Source: Polyangiales bacterium (GTDB lineage Bacteria; Myxococcota_A; Polyangia; Polyangiales; Polyangiaceae). Taken from it: a stretch of 64,000 nt of DNA. Below, in pieces: positions 23,275-32,384 of this stretch (position 1 is the first letter of the stretch; the number at the start of each line of letters is the position of its first letter). Under the pieces are notes generated by a model. It was not told the origin of the DNA, made no database searches, and saw only the letters and a program-made list of their open reading frames with translations. The translations under genes and the position numbers were made by a program. The stretch is taken from the NCBI GenBank assembly GCA_038231275.1, contig JBBRLQ010000007.1, positions 192,001 to 256,000 of the forward strand, written 5' to 3'.

Positions 23275-24207
23275 ATGATGCCGAGCACCGGACCGCGCAC
23301 GTTCGTCCTCGTAACGACGGCGCTGGCTCTCGCGGCGTGCGTGCAGAGCTCCGCGAACCCCGCGCCGGATGGGGGGCCGGGAACCTCGTTCGGATCGGAC
23401 GGCGGACCGGACACGAGCGTTCGCGACTCCGCGCCCCCTCCCGAAGGCGACGCGTCGACGCCGCCCGATGCAGAGAATGGCCTCGACGCGGACGCGGCGC
23501 CCCTCGACGCCGGGCCTTGCACGAAGCCGCTGAACAAGGCGCTGCAGTTCGCGGGCGGGCAGCTCGCGACAGCGCCCGACTCGGTCTCGCTTCACCTGAG
23601 CGATCTGACCGCCGAGGCCTGGGTGAATTTCGCGACCCTCGCCAACCCGTATCAGACCATCATCGCAAAGCCGTACGGCGCTGCGACGGGCGATTCGTTC
23701 ACCATCTGGTACGAGAGCGGCGGGTTGCACGCGGGCGCGAACCCAACGAGCGTGACCGACGCAATCGGCTACACGTGGGCGCCCGCGATCGGCTCGTGGC
23801 ACCACGTCGCCTTCACGTTCGAAAAGGCCACCCTGGCGCAGAAGCTCTACGTCGACGGCGGCCTCGTTGCGTCGGGAACCGCCGCGAGCGCACCCGTCTA
23901 CGACACGCACGCGTTCTACGTCGGCGCCGACGCAGACTTCGGGAACCCGAGCGGATTCTTCAACGGGCAGATCGACGAGGTTCGGATCTGGACCTCCGTG
24001 CGCGCGATCGCGGACATCGGGGGAGACCTTCGGACCTGCATCCCCGGATCGTTCACGGGCCTCGGCGGCTACTGGCCGCTCGACGAAGGAAGCGGCCAGG
24101 CCGCCGGCGACGTCAGCGGCAACGCGAACAACGCGCAGCTCGGCGCGGCCGCGGGGGCCGACGCCGCCGATCCGGTCTGGGTCGATTCCACGGTCCCGTT
24201 CAAATAG
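23275..24207 (+). CDS. LamG/concanavalin-like lipoprotein
   Basis: Lipobox LAAC; TAEAWV, WHHVAFT, LYVDG, FNGQIDEVRIW, GYWPLDEGSG. Confidence 0.88.
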   Translation: MMPSTGPRTFVLVTTALALAACVQSSANPAPDGGPGTSFGSDGGPDTSVRDSAPPPEGDASTPPDAENGLDADAAPLDAGPCTKPLNKALQFAGGQLATAPDSVSLHLSDLTAEAWVNFATLANPYQTIIAKPYGAATGDSFTIWYESGGLHAGANPTSVTDAIGYTWAPAIGSWHHVAFTFEKATLAQKLYVDGGLVASGTAASAPVYDTHAFYVGADADFGNPSGFFNGQIDEVRIWTSVRAIADIGGDLRTCIPGSFTGLGGYWPLDEGSGQAAGDVSGNANNAQLGAAAGADAADPVWVDSTVPFK

Positions 24208-24216
24208 ACGCGGCGA

Positions 24217-25766
<1,550 letters not shown>

Positions 25767-25767
<1 letters not shown>

Positions 25768-26723
25768 CAGAACCGCGCGCTCAACGTGGCGGTGACGGTG
25801 GGCGCAGGGCCTGGTCCCGTAGACCAGCCGATCGCGAAGAGCCCGACGGCCGCCGTGGCCGCGCCGCTCGCCGCCGTCACGAGCGCCAGGACGTTCGTGC
25901 GGACCTGCGCGTCGGAGCCGGCGGTGGATGTCGGCGCGGACGGCTTGGCGACGAAGTCGTCGTGCTTGCTCTTCGTGTCGAGCGCGGACCACACGGTGAC
26001 GCCGCCGACGACGGCGGTGACGGCGGCGCCGACCCAGAACCACACCGGCGAGATTCCGCCGTCGCGCCGTGGCGGATCGTGAGGCGCGCGCGGAGGGGAG
26101 GGGGCGACCGTGCGGGGTGGCTCGATGGCGCGCGCGGGCGGCGGCGCGATTTTGCTCGGCGGCGGCGCGGGCGCGGGGGGCGGCGTGGGGGCGACCTCGA
26201 CGCTCGCGCCGATCGCGACGACGACCTTCTGCTTCTCGGGCGCGCCGTCGGCCGTCAGCTCGACGACGTGCTCGCCCGGCTTGACCCACCGCTTCACGCC
26301 GATCGGCGTGTGACGCCCGTCGACGTGCACGTTGCAGAACGTGGCGGGCGGCGGGCACGTCACGGTGAGCTGGCCCACGTCGCGCGAGAACCGCGCGCGC
26401 GCCGTCTTGCCCTTCTCCCACAGCGGCGTCGACGGAGGGACGCGCCGCTCGACACGCTCGACGAGATCCATCGCGGTCGCCGCGTCGCGCGCGCGAACGG
26501 CGGCCTCGAGCGCGAGGCCGAGCACCGTCACGTTGGGCGAGAGCTCGTCGGCGAGCGCGAGGTCCACCGCCGCCGTCGCGTACCCGCCGGCGTCGTAGGC
26601 GGCGGCGCCTCGATCGTACGCGGCGCGCGCCTGCGCTACGGAGGCGTCGTCCTGCGCCGATGCGACGCGCGCGACGAGCGCCAGCGACAGCGTCACGACA
26701 ACGCGCATGAAAACCCGCCGCAT
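25767..26723 (-). CDS. TPR + PEGA-like protein with C-terminal hydrophobic hairpin ending in Phe
   Basis: Signal peptide, helical TPR-like N-terminus, VHVDG..VKPGEH, two Gly/Ala-rich hydrophobic segments, ends LSARF. Confidence 0.75.
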
Positions 26724-26777
26724 CTCCCAAGAATACAGACAAAACGCGGAAGCCGCGTCGGCCTTCTGCTCGCGCGC

Positions 26778-28121
26778 CTACGTCTTGGTCAGCTTGTGCT
26801 TCACGAGCAATCGCCCGAGGTAGGAGCGATCGAGGCCCGCGAGCTTCGCGGCCGACGACTGGTTGCCGCGGGTGTGGGCCATGAGCGCCTGAAGGTAGAC
26901 GCGCGTGAAGCGCTCGGCGAGCTCCTCCTTCTGGTCACCGTACGGACGGTTCACGTCGACCAGATCGCCGAACGCCATCTCCAGGGTCGTCGACGTCGAG
27001 CCCGCGGGCTCGGGGAGGACGCCGAGCGCGGCGTACGCGTGGATGACGTTGCGGAGCTCTCGCGCGTTTCCCGGCCACGCGCGGGCCTTCAGCTGCTCGA
27101 TCAGCGGCGCCGAGAGCGCACCGAGGCCCACGTGCTCGGCGAACTGGCGCGCGAGCGGCTCGATGTCCTCCGGGCGCTCGCGGAGCGACGGGAGGGAGAG
27201 CTTCACGACGGCGAGCCGGTAGTAGAGATCCTCACGGAAGCGGCCGGCCCGCACCTCGGCCTCGAGATCGCGGTTCGTCGCGGCGATGACGCGCACCTGG
27301 ACGTGGCGTGCGGCGTCGGCGCCGATCGGCCGTACCTCTCCGGTCTCGAGCGCGCGCAAGAGGACCGGCTGCATCTCGAGCGGCAGCTCGCCGATCTCGT
27401 CGAGGAAGAGCGTGCCATGATCGGCGCACTCGAACGCGCCCTTGCGCGCCTGCGCGGCGCCAGTGAACGAGCCGCGCGTGTGGCCGAAGAGCTCGCTTCC
27501 CACGAGGTCGCGCGGGATGGCGCCGCAGTTGACGTTCACGAGCGGCCCCTCGGCGAGCGAGCCCTCGTGGAGCGCGCGCGCGACGAGCTCTTTGCCGACG
27601 CCCGACTCTCCGCCCACGAGCACGGTGACGAGCGAGCCCTCGAGGCGCGCGAGGGTCGCGAAGACGCGGCGCATCGCCAGGCTGGCGCCGACCATTCCGC
27701 GGAACGACTCGCCCGCGAACACCGCGCCGCCGGTCAGCGACTCCGTGTCCGCGTCGAGCGCGACGTCGGTGTTCCCGATCTTGATGCGCGCGCCGAGCGC
27801 GAGGCTCATTCGCTCGACGCGCTGTCCGAGGTACCACGTGCCGTTGCGGCTCCCGAGGTCGGTGACGCGCACGCCCTCGGGCACCAATGCCAGCTCGACG
27901 TGGGCGCGCGACACGCCGGGCTCCAAGACGACGATCGCGCTCCCGCTCGCCGAGCCGAGCACGCACGTGCCGGTCTTGAGCCGGAACGCCGCCGGCGTCG
28001 CGCGCGCGCCGAGGACACGGATCACGGCGCCCAGCGGTCGCGGCGAGCTCGTCCCTTGACGAACGAGCGTCGCCGTCGCCGGATCCGGTGAGCCTTGCTT
28101 CGTGCGCGCCACGAGGCTCAC
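26778..28121 (-). CDS. FHA-domain sigma54-dependent transcriptional activator
   Basis: VSRAH...DLGSRNGT (FHA); [40 protein letters not shown]-terminal HTH. Confidence 0.94.
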
Positions 28122-28131
28122 AGGATACCCG

Positions 28132-29082
28132 TTACTTCTTGGGCTCGCAGCACTCGTACTTCGCCGTCGAGTAGCCGCCGGCGGCGCACGCGTCGCCGAG
28201 GATCGAGGTGTTCACGACGTAGCCCTTGCTGGTGCACACCTTCGTGACCTCGTCGTTCAGGATCTGCGCCGACTCGCACGCACCGGTGATCGCGCCCGAG
28301 AAGCACGCGCGCGGGGGCGGCGGGGGCGGCGGCGGGGGCGGCGGGGGCTTGACGTCGCAGCACTCGAACTTCACGTTTTCGTAGCTCTTGCCACCGACCG
28401 GGCCGGCGCATGGGGTGCCGTATTCGAGCTGCGTCAGCGTCGCGCCCTTCTGCGAGCAAGTGTCCGAGGCGTACTGCTTCCAAATGTAGTCGGGCTTGCA
28501 GGACGTCGGGTCGCCGAGGCCCACCGTGAAGCACGAGGGCGGCGGGGGAGGAGGCGGCGGCGGGGGCGGCCCCGCGAGGCAGCACTCGAACTTCGTGTAG
28601 CGGTAGAGATCCTTCCCGCACGAGTCGGCGTACTCGATGACGACGACGTCGAGGCCCTTGGCCTTGCACTCCTCGGCGGCGTACGTCTTCCACGTCGCGG
28701 AGTCCTTGCAGCTGGTCGGGCCGCCCTGCGAGTCGACGAAGCACGCGACGGGGCCGGGGTTGGGGACCGGCGTGGGGTCGGGCTTGCAGCAGTACCACTT
28801 GGCGCCGTTGAACCCGTCGCCGCACTTGTCGCCGTAGCCGAACTCGCTGACCTCGAGGCCGCGCGACTCGCACGACGCAACGGCGTCCTTCTTCAGCTCC
28901 TCGGCGGTCGCGCACTTCGGGGTCGAGACGCCCTCGCCGATGCACTGCCCCACCTTAAGACCCTCTTGTGACGCTCCGCTATTGTCGCCGCCAATCGTCG
29001 GGGACGATCCCGAGCTACAGCCGACGATCAGCGCGGCGCCGACGAACGAGAGACCAAAAGCAATGTGGATGTTCCTGACCAT
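28132..29082 (-). CDS. Lipoprotein with four tandem 6-Cys domains (APP copper-binding-domain-like spacing) and Pro-rich linkers
   Basis: RBS GAGGAGG before ATG 29082; lipobox IVGC; repeats ending KWYCC, KFECC, KFECC, KYECC. Confidence 0.85.
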   Translation of the reverse strand: MVRNIHIAFGLSFVGAALIVGCSSGSSPTIGGDNSGASQEGLKVGQCIGEGVSTPKCATAEELKKDAVASCESRGLEVSEFGYGDKCGDGFNGAKWYCCKPDPTPVPNPGPVACFVDSQGGPTSCKDSATWKTYAAEECKAKGLDVVVIEYADSCGKDLYRYTKFECCLAGPPPPPPPPPPPSCFTVGLGDPTSCKPDYIWKQYASDTCSQKGATLTQLEYGTPCAGPVGGKSYENVKFECCDVKPPPPPPPPPPPPRACFSGAITGACESAQILNDEVTKVCTSKGYVVNTSILGDACAAGGYSTAKYECCEPKK

Positions 29083-29113
29083 GACGACCTCCTCGGGGTT
29101 GTCGTCCTCCATC

Positions 29114-29128
29114 GCAACGTGTGTGCCG
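29114..29128 (-). promoter_or_regulatory. Putative sigma54 promoter
   Basis: Minus strand CGGCAC-ACACG-TTGC, about 30 nt upstream of ATG 29082. Confidence 0.65.
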
Positions 29129-29253
29129 CGCCTCCGAAATCGCATTTTGCGCGGAATATTGCGGTCCGGGTGGGGACATGTGCCATCGGGAGTAGGAGTC
29201 GACTCCGCAGCCTGCTCACTCGAGTCTGCAGGGGGGCTTCGCGGCGCTCTCCG

Positions 29254-29910
29254 TCAGGGACTGCAAACGAGCGTGAGGCCGCCGTCGCCGGGATCGCAGG
29301 TGAGCGTCTTGCAACTCGTCTTCGCGCACGTGCAGTCGTGGGCGGCGGCGTCGCAGCCTTGCTTGTCCCAGTCCACGCACGCGTAGACGGCCTTCGTCTT
29401 GTAGGTCTGACAAAAGGACGTGGCGCGATTGCAGTACTCGTAGCCGCACTGGAAGTGATCGGCGCCGGCGCCTGTGCAGCCGCCGACGTCGAGATCGACG
29501 CCCTGGTTGAAGAGCTCGCAGTCGCTCTTCGCAATTTTGTTTCCGCAGCCGCAGTAATAGGCGGTGTCCTGCGAGCACCCGGAGCCGGGGATCGGCATGC
29601 AGACGCCGGTGGCCCCGCGGCCGCACTGGTGGTCATCGTAGAAGCAATACGAGCCGCCCGGGCATCCGGTCTTGCAGTTGGGAGGGACGAAGTTGTCGGG
29701 GAGGGGAGGCACGTCGTCCGAGGGGGCGTCGGCCGCGTCGGAGTCGGCGCCGCCGTCGAGGATCGAACCGTCGTGTCCGGCGTCCCCGCCGTCGCCACCG
29801 TCTCCGGCACCGTCGAACGTGAAGTCGTAGAAGCACGCCGCAGCGAGGGGTGCCGCCGCGACCGCCACGACGACGGCGAAGAAGCGGGTGCTCGCGCGCG
29901 TGACCATCAT
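29254..29910 (-). CDS. Cys-rich lipoprotein
   Basis: Lipobox AAAC, Asp/Gly linker, many Cys incl. CGC. Confidence 0.75.
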   Translation of the reverse strand: MMVTRASTRFFAVVVAVAAAPLAAACFYDFTFDGAGDGGDGGDAGHDGSILDGGADSDAADAPSDDVPPLPDNFVPPNCKTGCPGGSYCFYDDHQCGRGATGVCMPIPGSGCSQDTAYYCGCGNKIAKSDCELFNQGVDLDVGGCTGAGADHFQCGYEYCNRATSFCQTYKTKAVYACVDWDKQGCDAAAHDCTCAKTSCKTLTCDPGDGGLTLVCSP

Positions 29911-29923
29911 ACGGATCCTACGC

Positions 29924-31141
29924 TCACTCCGCGTACATCTGGATGCCGGTCGCCGCGAGCCGCGCCATCCGCAGCGCCTCGTCCCAATCGGGGTGCCGGA
30001 GGTGGACCCAACCGTCGGAGAGAAGCGTCTGCCGCCAGTCGCGTCGCAGCTCGCCCGGCCGGAGCAGGCGCTCCTCCATCACCCAATGACCGCACTCGCG
30101 GAGCCACTCGCGCAGGCCTTCGATGCGCGTGATGCGCCCGTGCCCCTGCGCGCGTTTGTAGACGATCGCGGCGTTGTACTTTCGCTCGGTGCTCGCGTCG
30201 AAGTGCTTCCAGCACGCGACGCGGGCCCACTCGCGGAAGTGATCGACGTCGCACGTGAAGTTCATCTGATCGACGATGCCGGCGCCGCCGGGGCGCGCGC
30301 CGATCTCCCCGAACACGGCCTCGCCTTTGGAGGTGAGGAACCACTCCATGTGCGTGAACCCGTCGGTCATGCCGAGCGCGGTGAGCACCTTGCGCCCGAG
30401 CGCGATGCCGCCCTGGTATTTCTGCTGCGCCATGTCGCGCACCGTGATGCCGATGGGACTGACCCACTCGTTCATGCGCATCTCGAGCGGCTTGGGGAAG
30501 TACGCCATGATGCTCTCGGTGGCGGGTACTCCGTCGATGCAGATCGTGTCGAACGTGAACTCCTCGCCGTCGATGTACTCCTCGCAGCTCACCTCCGGCA
30601 CGAGGCGCAAGCACGCGATGAAGTGATCGAGCTCGGGCGGCGTGTCGACGCGGTAGGTGTCGGCGCTGCCGGCGCCCGCGATCGGCTTCAGGATGAGCGG
30701 GTAGCCGATCTCCTCGGCGGCCTCACGCGCTTCGTGCGCCGTCTTCACGCGGCGGGAGCGCGGGACGCGGATGCCCGCGGCGGCGACGCGCTCCTTCATG
30801 AGCTGCTTGTCGCGAAAGCCGCGCGCCGTGTCGAGGCTCATCCCCGGCATCCCCCAGCGCTCGCGGAGCCGCGCGGCGAGCTCCACCACCGGCTCCCAGT
30901 TGGCGAGGACGCGATCGACCGTGCGGCCTTGCAGCCACGCCGAGACGCGCTCCATGACGTCGGCCTCGTCCATGATGCGTGGAACCTGCAAGTAATCTCG
31001 CAGGTACGGCTTCACCGCGGCGGGCAGCTGCTCGCGCGGCGTGTCCGCGACGCCGTACACCTCCGCGCCGACCTCCGCGAGGCCGCGCGTGTACTGCACC
31101 ATCTCGGGGGGATATGCGGGGGAGAGAAAGACGACGCGCAT
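29924..31141 (-). CDS. ATP-grasp domain protein
   Basis: FRDKQLMKE, GYPLILKPIAGAGS, EEYIDGEE, THMEWF, GEIGARPGG; start MRVVFLSP at 31141. Confidence 0.88.
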   Translation of the reverse strand: MRVVFLSPAYPPEMVQYTRGLAEVGAEVYGVADTPREQLPAAVKPYLRDYLQVPRIMDEADVMERVSAWLQGRTVDRVLANWEPVVELAARLRERWGMPGMSLDTARGFRDKQLMKERVAAAGIRVPRSRRVKTAHEAREAAEEIGYPLILKPIAGAGSADTYRVDTPPELDHFIACLRLVPEVSCEEYIDGEEFTFDTICIDGVPATESIMAYFPKPLEMRMNEWVSPIGITVRDMAQQKYQGGIALGRKVLTALGMTDGFTHMEWFLTSKGEAVFGEIGARPGGAGIVDQMNFTCDVDHFREWARVACWKHFDASTERKYNAAIVYKRAQGHGRITRIEGLREWLRECGHWVMEERLLRPGELRRDWRQTLLSDGWVHLRHPDWDEALRMARLAATGIQMYAE

Positions 31142-31154
31142 GGGCGGCGCTCGA

Positions 31155-31958
31155 TCAGCCGCCTTGCTGGTGCGCCTTCTGCGTTGCGCCGCGGTACATG
31201 CCGCCGAGGCCGCAGAAGATGCCGATGCCGATGCCTTGGGCGGCGAGGAAGATCGCGCTCGAGAAATCCATCTCCTCGAGGACGAGGCCGAGCCCGAGAT
31301 CGCCGACGCCATAGAGGATCGCCGACGCGATCACGACGCCGGTGACGAGCCCGCGTCCGGCCTTCGTGAAGAGCGCGCCGCCGTAACCTGCGCCCGCGAA
31401 CGAGAGAGCGGTCGTCGCATACCAGATGTACCCGGTCGGATCGTGGATGACCTTCGTGAAGACGATGTCGAACACGAGCGCGACGATCGCCGCGCCGATG
31501 CCCATCACGAACGCGAGCGCCGACGGCATCCCCGAGGCTTTTCCCGCAGGCATCGACATGCCGCCGAGCCCGCCGAAGCCGGGAATCCCGACGCCGAGAC
31601 CGCCGAGGTTCTGCGCCGGCGCCTGCTGCTGCGGCGGCTGCCCGTACGCTTGTTGCTGCGGCGGCTGCTCGTATTGCGGTTGCTGTTGCGGCGGCTGCCC
31701 GTACGCTTGTTGCTGCGGCGGCTGCCCGTACGCTTGTTGCTGCGGCGGCTGCCCGTATTGCGGTTGCTGTTGCGGCGGCTGCCCGTATTGCGGCTGCTGC
31801 TGCGGTGGCTGCCCGTATTGCGGTTGCTGCTGCTGCGGTTGCCCGTACGGCTGACCTTGCTGACCTTGCTGACCTTGCTGACCTTGCGGCGGATAGCCCT
31901 GCTGAGGATACTGACCGTAGCCGGGAGGAGGGCCGCCTTGGCCGGGGGGCTGGTTCAT
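31155..31958 (-). CDS. Membrane protein with Gln/Pro/Tyr/Gly low-complexity N-terminus
   Basis: Repeated YGQPPQQQ units, then about four hydrophobic helices. Confidence 0.75.
   Translation of the reverse strand: MNQPPGQGGPPPGYGQYPQQGYPPQGQQGQQGQQGQPYGQPQQQQPQYGQPPQQQPQYGQPPQQQPQYGQPPQQQAYGQPPQQQAYGQPPQQQPQYEQPPQQQAYGQPPQQQAPAQNLGGLGVGIPGFGGLGGMSMPAGKASGMPSALAFVMGIGAAIVALVFDIVFTKVIHDPTGYIWYATTALSFAGAGYGGALFTKAGRGLVTGVVIASAILYGVGDLGLGLVLEEMDFSSAIFLAAQGIGIGIFCGLGGMYRGATQKAHQQGG
31620..31885 (-). repeat. Tandem 27-33 bp repeats encoding YGQPPQQQ(PQ/A) and GQQ
   Basis: Repeated GGCTGCCCGTA.. units on the plus strand. Confidence 0.85.
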
Positions 31959-32036
31959 GAGCTCGAGAGTACGTGCAGGCCGCGCGCGGAACAATCCCTT
32001 GCGCGCGCCGCGCGGGCGCGCTTTTCTTGGGCTCGA

Positions 32037-32384
32037 GTGGACCCCCGCACCGCCACGCGCAAGTTCGACGTCGCGCCGTGCGTGATGTTGGTCGCCCTGG
32101 CGGAAGCAGAGGCGGAGGTGTGCGCGCGCGTGCTCAAGCCTCTCACCGCCGGGAAATCCGTCGCGATCATGCGCGTCGTACACATTCGGGCGGCGTGCGA
32201 GCGGATGCTGGTCACGCGGCCGCTCGTCGTCCTCTTCGCGGAGAAGCTCGGAGCGGAGGATCGGAAGCTCCTCGTCGAGCGCGCGCAGGACATCTCTGCG
32301 TCGATCGTGACCGTGCCCGTCTTGATCGACGAAGACGAGCTTCGCACCCGGATCGCCGCCGCACTCGCCGCCGCGGACCTCTGA
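32037..32384 (+). CDS. Small hypothetical protein
   Basis: GTG 32037; protein-like segment AACERMLVTRPLVV...ERAQDISA; alpha/beta pattern. Confidence 0.6.
   Translation: MDPRTATRKFDVAPCVMLVALAEAEAEVCARVLKPLTAGKSVAIMRVVHIRAACERMLVTRPLVVLFAEKLGAEDRKLLVERAQDISASIVTVPVLIDEDELRTRIAAALAAADL

Follow-up and report, generated by a model that had tools for sequence, protein, structure and literature searches.

A predicted myxobacterial lipoprotein carrying four tandem domains related to the copper-binding domain of the amyloid precursor protein

We analysed a 64 kb stretch of DNA (the window) from a Polyangiales bacterium (GCA_038231275.1, contig JBBRLQ010000007.1, positions 192,001–256,000), a soil-type myxobacterium of the Myxococcota. 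On the reverse strand, at window positions 28132–29082, lies a gene for a predicted lipoprotein of 316 amino acids (aa) with four six-cysteine repeats (R1 to R4), which profile comparisons identify as genuinely homologous to the copper-binding domain (CuBD) of APP, the amyloid precursor protein of animals. The bacterial domains share the scaffold of the animal domain, while the residues that bind copper in APP are replaced. The protein is probably an envelope lipoprotein in which CuBD modules serve in copper-independent binding or scaffolding, under the control of a kinase, an FHA-domain activator and sigma-54. An initial annotation of this DNA had proposed a bacterial lipoprotein with four six-Cys repeats; the translated sequence, the lipobox and matches to the Pfam family APP_Cu_bd (PF12924) in four stretches all agree with that proposal.

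The open reading frame called at this locus spans 28132–29145 on the same strand (337 aa). The ATG at 29082 appears to be the better start, since it is preceded at 5 nt by a GAGGAGG ribosome-binding site, a sigma-54-type promoter element (described below) lies downstream of the alternative ATG at 29145, and the N-termini of homologues align to the 29082 start. The lipobox, AALIVG-C22, follows the pattern [LVI][ASTVI][GAS]C, and Cys22 is invariant in 10/10 aligned homologues. We predict that the protein is a lipoprotein of the cell envelope, with its four repeats joined by Pro-rich linkers of 14–17 residues.

The Cys spacing of R2, C-x10-C-x13-C-x15-C-x11-CC, fully matches the PF12924 framework. 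The corresponding intervals are x9/x13/x15/x10 in R1, x10/x13/x15/x15 in R3 and x8/x13/x15/x11 in R4, so that these three repeats deviate from the framework by 1–4 residues, in the first or last loop. The initial annotation had given this spacing for R2, and for R3 up to the fourth Cys, and had called it identical to that of the APP CuBD; the translation confirms the former, and the latter is upheld by an ungapped profile alignment to 1owt_A and by 55/55 columns aligned to 2fkl_A. R2 is 87%, 80% and 53% identical to R2 of three related loci in other genomes (L002, L001 and L003, respectively), and 32%, 44% and 28% identical to R1, R3 and R4 of its own protein. Every repeat is likewise nearest to the same-numbered repeat of other genomes, and the four-repeat layout is therefore older than these lineages.

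Searched against the whole protein, PF12924 matched with E = 9.6e-17 (61.8 bits) over four stretches. R2 alone scored 32.3 bits, above the family gathering score of 26.4 bits. For the reverse comparison, a bacterial profile was built from 17 repeats, four from the window and 13 from loci L001–L004, and run against 177,635 PDB sequences. All 11 matches at E ≤ 1 were APP, APLP2 or APL-1; the top match, 1owt_A (6.9e-6), aligned gap-free over the stretch between the second Cys and the CC pair. Because PF12924 matches the protein and the bacterial profile returns the APP family alone in the PDB, the relationship is, at the level of profiles, reciprocal and specific among these 177,635 sequences. 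Bacterial repeats and APP also have non-Cys positions in common, namely the core Trp, an Ala and a G-x-D-x-[FY]-R motif before the CC pair. PF12924 was the only family detected by Pfam in the lipoprotein: there is no APP_N or E2 domain, no transmembrane helix and no YENPTY tail. As these other defining parts of the APP/APLP receptors are absent, the protein has PF12924 domains and falls outside that receptor family, with which it shares one domain.

An AlphaFold2 model of R2, computed from the 17-repeat alignment, has a mean predicted local distance difference test score (pLDDT) of 97.7 and consists of a strand (2–7), a helix (15–28) and two further strands (33–43 and 46–54), which corresponds to the PF12924 fold of one alpha-helix packed on a three-stranded sheet. 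Compared with the PDB by Foldseek, the model best matched 2fkl_A, with a query-normalised template modelling (TM) score of 0.95 and a deviation of 0.8 Å over 55/55 columns at 29% identity. The 13 matches listed down to rank 22 were all APP-family CuBD or E1 structures, and the next fold after them was an RRM (TM score 0.51, E 0.29). In the full-length model four confident domains (blocks of ~85–96) are separated by low-confidence linkers and preceded by a low-confidence N-terminus; R1 adopts the same beta-alpha-beta-beta order at a pLDDT of about 90. The overall predicted TM score (pTM) is 0.28, and there is therefore no fixed inter-domain arrangement. The suggestion of tandem domains on Pro-rich stalks is thus borne out by the sequence and by the whole-protein model. 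In the APP CuBD the disulfides pair C1–C6, C2–C4 and C3–C5. From the column-for-column superposition we predict three disulfides per bacterial domain with the same pairing. A search of the protein atlas with the lipoprotein gave a best feature score of 0.76 and was uninformative.

The copper ligands of APP, His147, His151 and Tyr168, are taken here to correspond to profile positions 15, 19 and 36, following the ungapped alignment to 1owt_A. The residues at these positions are Ala/Lys/Phe in R1, Ser/Lys/Ile in R2, Asp/Lys/Leu in R3 and Ala/Asn/Ser in R4. We extended the comparison to 598 domains from 172 family proteins, keeping the 501 domains in which 50 or more of the 55 positions are covered. 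None of the 501 has His at position 15, two have it at position 19 and none has both, while Tyr occupies position 36 in 64. The scaffold over the same set is well conserved (Cys2–Cys6 99–100%, Trp18 71%, Ala22 79%, Gly7 80% and Leu33 76%), and the site of APP His151 is occupied by Lys19 in 74%. The mature lipoprotein contains 25 Cys and neither His nor Met. These data indicate that the APP-type copper site has been lost in the bacterial domains, which share the scaffold of APP and not its copper function, as the initial annotation had anticipated from the missing ligands.

With the scaffold kept and the copper ligands gone, copper-independent binding or scaffolding is the most likely role. Once exported and lipidated, the protein would form a semi-rigid rod extending into the periplasm or outward from the surface of the cell, with four disulfide-locked domains spaced by stiff Pro-rich or poly-proline linkers like beads. 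In the oxidising envelope, these domains may act as binding or scaffolding modules for a ligand other than copper. The GGPTSCK loop of R2, together with Lys19, is the best candidate for a binding surface: 20 invariant columns of the homologue alignment fall in R2, where GGPTSCK..W is invariant in 10/10 sequences and the next Lys is present in 9/10. Conservation of these loop and helix residues looks like that of a surface rather than of bulk.

The lipoprotein belongs to a large family. A word-indexed homologue search returned nine relatives of similar length and 34–45% identity, all labelled PF12924, one of them a “hypothetical protein” from a Deltaproteobacteria metagenome-assembled genome (MAG). 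An exhaustive profile search of 1.84 billion representatives (50% identity clusters) then matched 602 proteins at E ≤ 1e-3, of which 278 reached E ≤ 1e-10 and 56 reached E ≤ 1e-30. We inspected the best 150 of the 602, comprising P0007 and 149 new identifiers. One of the latter, P0023 (4546 aa, 28 matching stretches), was rejected as a false positive, having HYR_4C, Big_14 and Ig/LamG domains, a type-9 secretion tail and no PF12924, which left 148 new proteins for analysis. PF12924 was present at E ≤ 1e-3 in 135 of these 148 best relatives, and APP_N or APP_E2 was detected by Pfam in none of them. They carry 2–9 domains per protein, joined by linkers with a median length of 15 residues and 33% Pro, and by a simple rule a lipobox follows a hydrophobic stretch in 90 of the 126 that look full-length (~70%). 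A separate profile made from fourteen two-domain relatives returned 13 proteins, 12 of them labelled PF12924. Judging from the best 150, the 602 matches probably form an essentially non-animal set, since animal proteins would be expected to score ~25–30 bits, mostly under the E cut-off.

Fusions are rare among the relatives and join the domain to FecR, PrcB_C or BNR/sortilin-like parts. Four relatives (P0113, P0127, P0143 and P0156) are membrane proteins: their N-terminal region, FecR-like in P0113, is cytoplasmic, and the CuBD-like domains are outermost. This layout suggests that the domain may serve as a sensor module in anti-sigma-type proteins.

The three related loci were found by a scan of one genome per species with motifs of the window's own subfamily, which does not bound the range of the family; it gave 27 pattern matches, four of which were confirmed. 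L002 and L001 come from MAGs named “Myxococcales bacterium” (81% and 66% identity, respectively) and L003 from a Labilithrix MAG (42%). Other named relatives are from one Deltaproteobacteria MAG and one Polyangia MAG. The named relatives are Myxococcota MAGs; some relatives have low-GC-looking signal peptides. The fourth locus, L004 (433–1218, forward strand), from a Polyangia MAG, encodes a protein with one CuBD-like domain, which scores 76.8 bits against the family profile and is flanked by a distinct repeated Cys motif, C-x9-C-x2-C-x11-C; it represents a second architecture. Neither in the 64 kb window nor in the sequence flanking loci L001–L004 did the family profile detect another CuBD gene. 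The NCBI name of the relatives is “hypothetical protein” throughout, and NCBIfam has no model for the CuBD lipoprotein or for the Cys-rich lipoprotein-like protein encoded directly upstream of it (Table 1).

Turning to regulation, the consensus for sigma-54 promoters is TGGCAC-N5-TTGCW. The element in front of the CuBD gene (cGGCACacacgTTGCg) is the sole exact match to GGCAC-N5-TTGC in the window; the stricter pattern TGGC-N8-TGC misses the site, the first base of which is C. The same element stands upstream of the orthologue in 3/3 syntenic loci (L001, L002 and L003) and does not vary when these three upstream regions and that of the window are aligned. Further upstream is a perfect palindrome, GGAGTCGACTCC, whose 10-bp core is unique in the window; the palindrome is kept in L001 and L002 and replaced by a palindromic variant in L003. 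It is a candidate binding site (upstream activating sequence) for the FHA-domain activator encoded by the next gene. The adjoining TGGCACA block lacks a conserved −12 element downstream and so probably belongs to the activator site rather than forming a second promoter. Nothing points to a wider regulon in the window, where one-mismatch sigma-54-like sites number 7 against 16.2 expected, fewer than by chance, and no sigma-70-like promoter was found in 24000–30200. We infer that the CuBD gene is the first of a sigma-54-type transcription unit, its dependence on sigma-54 being predicted from the motif and the adjacent activator.

The GTG start of the activator gene is 10 nt past the lipoprotein stop codon, and the activator is conserved in the same position in L002 (92% identity) and L003 (67%). 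A hairpin after it possibly ends a two-gene sigma-54 transcription unit. Beyond lies a gene for a 318-aa protein, predicted from its sequence to have a signal peptide, a periplasmic portion with helical and beta parts, a Pro-rich linker and, at the C-terminus, two transmembrane helices; its stop codon overlaps the ATG of a Ser/Thr kinase gene by 1 nt. The order lipoprotein, activator, 318-aa protein and kinase is kept in L002 and L003, and the L001 contig breaks off within the activator gene. L001 and L002 also retain the upstream Cys-rich gene, which went undetected in L003. Past its transmembrane helix, the kinase continues in a T/P-rich extracytoplasmic tail of variable length and sequence (24217–24500, reverse strand) that ends in DKAPPNPY, invariant in the window, L002 and L003. 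The tail looks like a tethered peptide ligand for a periplasmic partner. A predicted complex of R2 with the periplasmic part of the 318-aa protein and the kinase tail scored 0.00 against a mark of 0.32; run without controls, this speaks neither for nor against an interaction.

Table 1 Features of the CuBD lipoprotein gene and its surroundings in the window
Feature	Position	Strand	Evidence or remark
Membrane Ser/Thr protein kinase	24217–25767	−	Pfam Pkinase 2.4e-31
318-aa protein, no Pfam family	25767–26723	−	74% identity in L002, 45% in L003
Terminator-like hairpin after activator gene	26743–26759	−	Consensus match
FHA + AAA+ sigma-54 interaction + Fis-type helix-turn-helix (HTH) activator	26778–28121	−	Sigma54_activat 4.9e-63, FHA 7.9e-11, HTH_8
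CuBD-like repeat 4 (R4), aa 260–312	28147–28305	−	Trp replaced by Leu; family profile 61.4 bits
Poly-proline linker 3 (DVKP12RA)	28306–28356	−	Sequence
CuBD-like repeat 3 (R3), aa 184–242	28357–28533	−	4-residue insertion between Cys4 and CC; family profile 80.1 bits
Poly-proline linker 2 (LAGP11S)	28534–28578	−	Sequence
CuBD-like repeat 2 (R2), aa 114–168	28579–28743	−	Most conserved repeat; exact APP Cys spacing
Pro-rich linker 1 (KPDPTPVPNPGPVA)	28744–28785	−	Sequence and model
CuBD-like repeat 1 (R1), aa 47–99	28786–28944	−	Pfam 24.6 bits alone; family profile 64.5 bits
Flexible Ser/Gly-rich tether, aa 23–46	28945–29016	−	Sequence; pLDDT <50 over aa 1–37
Predicted lipoprotein signal peptide, aa 1–21, and lipobox Cys22 (L-I-V-G-C)	29017–29082	−	Sequence; pLDDT <50
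Ribosome-binding site GAGGAGG	29088–29094	−	5 nt before ATG 29082; read from sequence
Sigma-54-type promoter GGCAC-N5-TTGC (cGGCACacacgTTGCg; −24 GG / −12 GC)	29114–29127	−	32 nt before ATG
TGGCACA block adjoining palindrome	29179–29185	−	GGCACA invariant in 4/4 upstream regions; leading T is C in L001
Perfect 12-bp palindrome GGAGTCGACTCC	29195–29206	−	~74 bp upstream of −24 element
218-aa Cys-rich lipoprotein-like protein, no Pfam/NCBIfam family	29254–29910	−	Directly upstream of CuBD gene

These genes could form a self-reinforcing circuit, as the activator gene follows in the transcription unit of the CuBD gene. The kinase would phosphorylate a target, and the FHA domain of the activator would read the phospho-threonine. 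Bound at the palindrome, the activator would then switch on the sigma-54 promoter, and the levels of lipoprotein and activator would both rise, giving positive feedback.

Several observations weigh against an APP-type, copper-independent binding lipoprotein under sigma-54 control. Taken singly, R1 (24.6 bits), R3 (22.7) and R4 (17.3) score below the PF12924 gathering score. Single-sequence phmmer searches of the PDB were weak, with a best value of 0.048 to module 2 of C. elegans APL-1 and two unrelated chains at similar E. The Foldseek E-values are modest (best 1.7e-4, two at ≤1e-3), which reflects a domain of 55 residues. AlphaFold2 was trained on the PDB, including the APP CuBD, and the R2 model is therefore counted as agreeing with the sequence evidence and not as a fully independent line; the disulfide pairing, in turn, comes from superposition and not from coordinates. 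The localisation of the protein, whether to the outer or inner membrane, the surface or the periplasm, is a prediction, and no ligand or partner was identified. On the regulatory side, at least one GGCAC-N5-TTGC match occurs in 40/100 shuffles. A single match is thus not significant by count, and the case for sigma-54 stands on position and conservation. The hairpin is a consensus match alone, one of 4 found in the region against 2.2 expected.

Chance or convergence, whereby a Cys-rich bacterial repeat would share the Cys spacing of the APP CuBD without common descent, could account for the weak single-sequence search and for the three repeats under the Pfam cut-off, the more so as the domain is short (55 aa), Cys-dominated and only 25–29% identical to APP in the Foldseek alignments. 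We consider it very unlikely nonetheless, given the whole-protein Pfam match, the return of the APP family in 11/11 cases from a PDB set rich in other Cys-rich domains, the shared non-Cys positions and a model that overlays the APP CuBD at 0.8 Å over its full length. Each check proposed with the initial annotation pointed the same way: a Pfam match above the gathering score, profile matches in the PDB to APP, APLP2 and APL-1 alone, and an R2 model that overlays the APP CuBD (TM score 0.95). Contamination of the MAG by eukaryotic DNA, or a piece of animal APP transferred into it very recently, would fit a domain otherwise described, in the available parts of the literature, from animals only. 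Against this, the GC content is 0.68 over 28001–30000 and 0.65–0.73 elsewhere in the window, the gene carries a lipobox and a ribosome-binding site of bacterial type, synteny extends to three independent Myxococcota MAG loci at 42–81% identity, APP_N and APP_E2 are absent from all 148 relatives, and identity to APP is low; we regard the chance of it as negligible.

Homology leaves the function to be weighed. The envelope is a place where copper is handled, and the Pfam family name would likewise suit a copper-handling lipoprotein, such as a periplasmic chaperone or sink. We give this idea little credence. The ligand positions are Ser/Lys/Ile in R2, with no His there in any of the four repeats or at both His positions in any of the 501 family domains, the mature protein lacks His and Met, and every Cys of the domains is predicted to form a disulfide. 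Around the gene lie signalling genes, and a Pfam scan of six neighbours showed none for copper resistance. A passive structural role as spacer or tether, in which the rod sets a distance in the envelope, for instance from the membrane to another layer, is easier to picture. It would draw on the Pro-rich linkers (14–17 residues here, median 15 aa and 33% Pro in the family), the lack of fixed inter-domain packing (pTM 0.28) and the failure to find a partner. The conserved GGPTSCK..W and Lys residues of R2, and Lys19 across the family, are not what a spacer would call for; repeat numbers of 2–9 hardly make a fixed ruler, and rare relatives fuse the domain to a FecR sensor-type protein. We therefore judge a spacer role unlikely, and favour copper-independent binding or scaffolding.

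Animal CuBDs (APP, APLP1/2 and C. elegans APL-1; structures 2FKL, 1OWT, 2FK3 and 2M05) have the same six-Cys framework, core Trp and Ala, and strand-helix-two-strand fold as the bacterial repeats. They differ in possessing the copper ligands His147, His151 and Tyr168, for which the bacterial repeats have no equivalents, and in occurring once in a type I receptor, flanked by the growth-factor-like domain and the acidic region, whereas the bacterial domains occur as 2–9 tandem copies on Pro-rich linkers. A non-copper role for the fold has a precedent: according to the accessible text of one study, the CuBD of APP and APLP2 binds contactins at a site separate from its copper-binding residues, as seen in complex structures 7MRK, 7MRN, 7MRS and 7MQY (PMC8808184). 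Those complexes are among the best Foldseek matches of the R2 model. As far as that text goes, the fold can likewise serve as a protein–protein module, and the contactin interface comprises the strand before the first Cys (L127–P130) and His137; the bacterial repeats have proline linkers and other residues there.

The initial annotation had called the protein a bacterial member of a mainly metazoan fold. Bacterial membership holds; the implied isolated oddity does not, as 602 representative clusters match, with PF12924 in 135 of the best 148. “Mainly metazoan” fits the literature, in so far as its available parts go, and not the sequence databases: the APP family is described as metazoan (bioRxiv 10.1101/181966, available portion), and APP homologues are reported in all animals examined except ctenophores (PMC11405698, available portion). 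No description of a bacterial CuBD was found in the full-text literature, with subscription journals outside the coverage, and the bacterial branch is large and apparently undescribed in print. Automated Pfam labels already tag these bacterial proteins PF12924, which weighs against novelty.

FHA-domain sigma-54 enhancer-binding proteins coupled to Ser/Thr kinases are known from the Myxococcus xanthus literature; our search found no open paper combining all the search terms for such FHA/sigma-54/kinase systems. The present locus resembles the M. xanthus systems in having an FHA + AAA+ + HTH activator beside a Ser/Thr kinase and a sigma-54-type promoter. It differs in that the proposed regulated unit would open with a CuBD-repeat lipoprotein.

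Few extracellular modules in neurobiology have been studied as much as the APP E1 region, or are understood as little. The bacterial family offers natural “ligand-less” versions of one of its folds, which help to tell the role of the scaffold from that of the metal, turns the origin of the CuBD into a testable phylogenetic question and suggests docking, not copper chemistry, as the general job of the fold. It also defines a widespread, unnamed class of bacterial tandem-repeat lipoproteins, one subfamily of which is linked to a conserved kinase, FHA-activator and sigma-54 module. Speculatively, and with more doubt than conviction, the APP CuBD might be an offshoot of a larger family of bacterial envelope modules centred on Myxococcota-like bacteria, in which copper-independent docking was ancestral and the animal copper site came later, perhaps after bacteria-to-animal transfer. 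On the same tentative footing, the four-domain rod might be the envelope arm of the kinase/FHA-activator/sigma-54 circuit, possibly engaging the DKAPPNPY tail or the neighbouring membrane protein.

Two further genes lie upstream of the cluster on the same strand. An ATP-grasp enzyme gene occupies 29924–31312, with no established link to the CuBD gene. At 31155–32183, a membrane protein is encoded that carries a long Q/P-rich repeat run (for example QPPQQQPQYG), weakly matched by Extensin_1.

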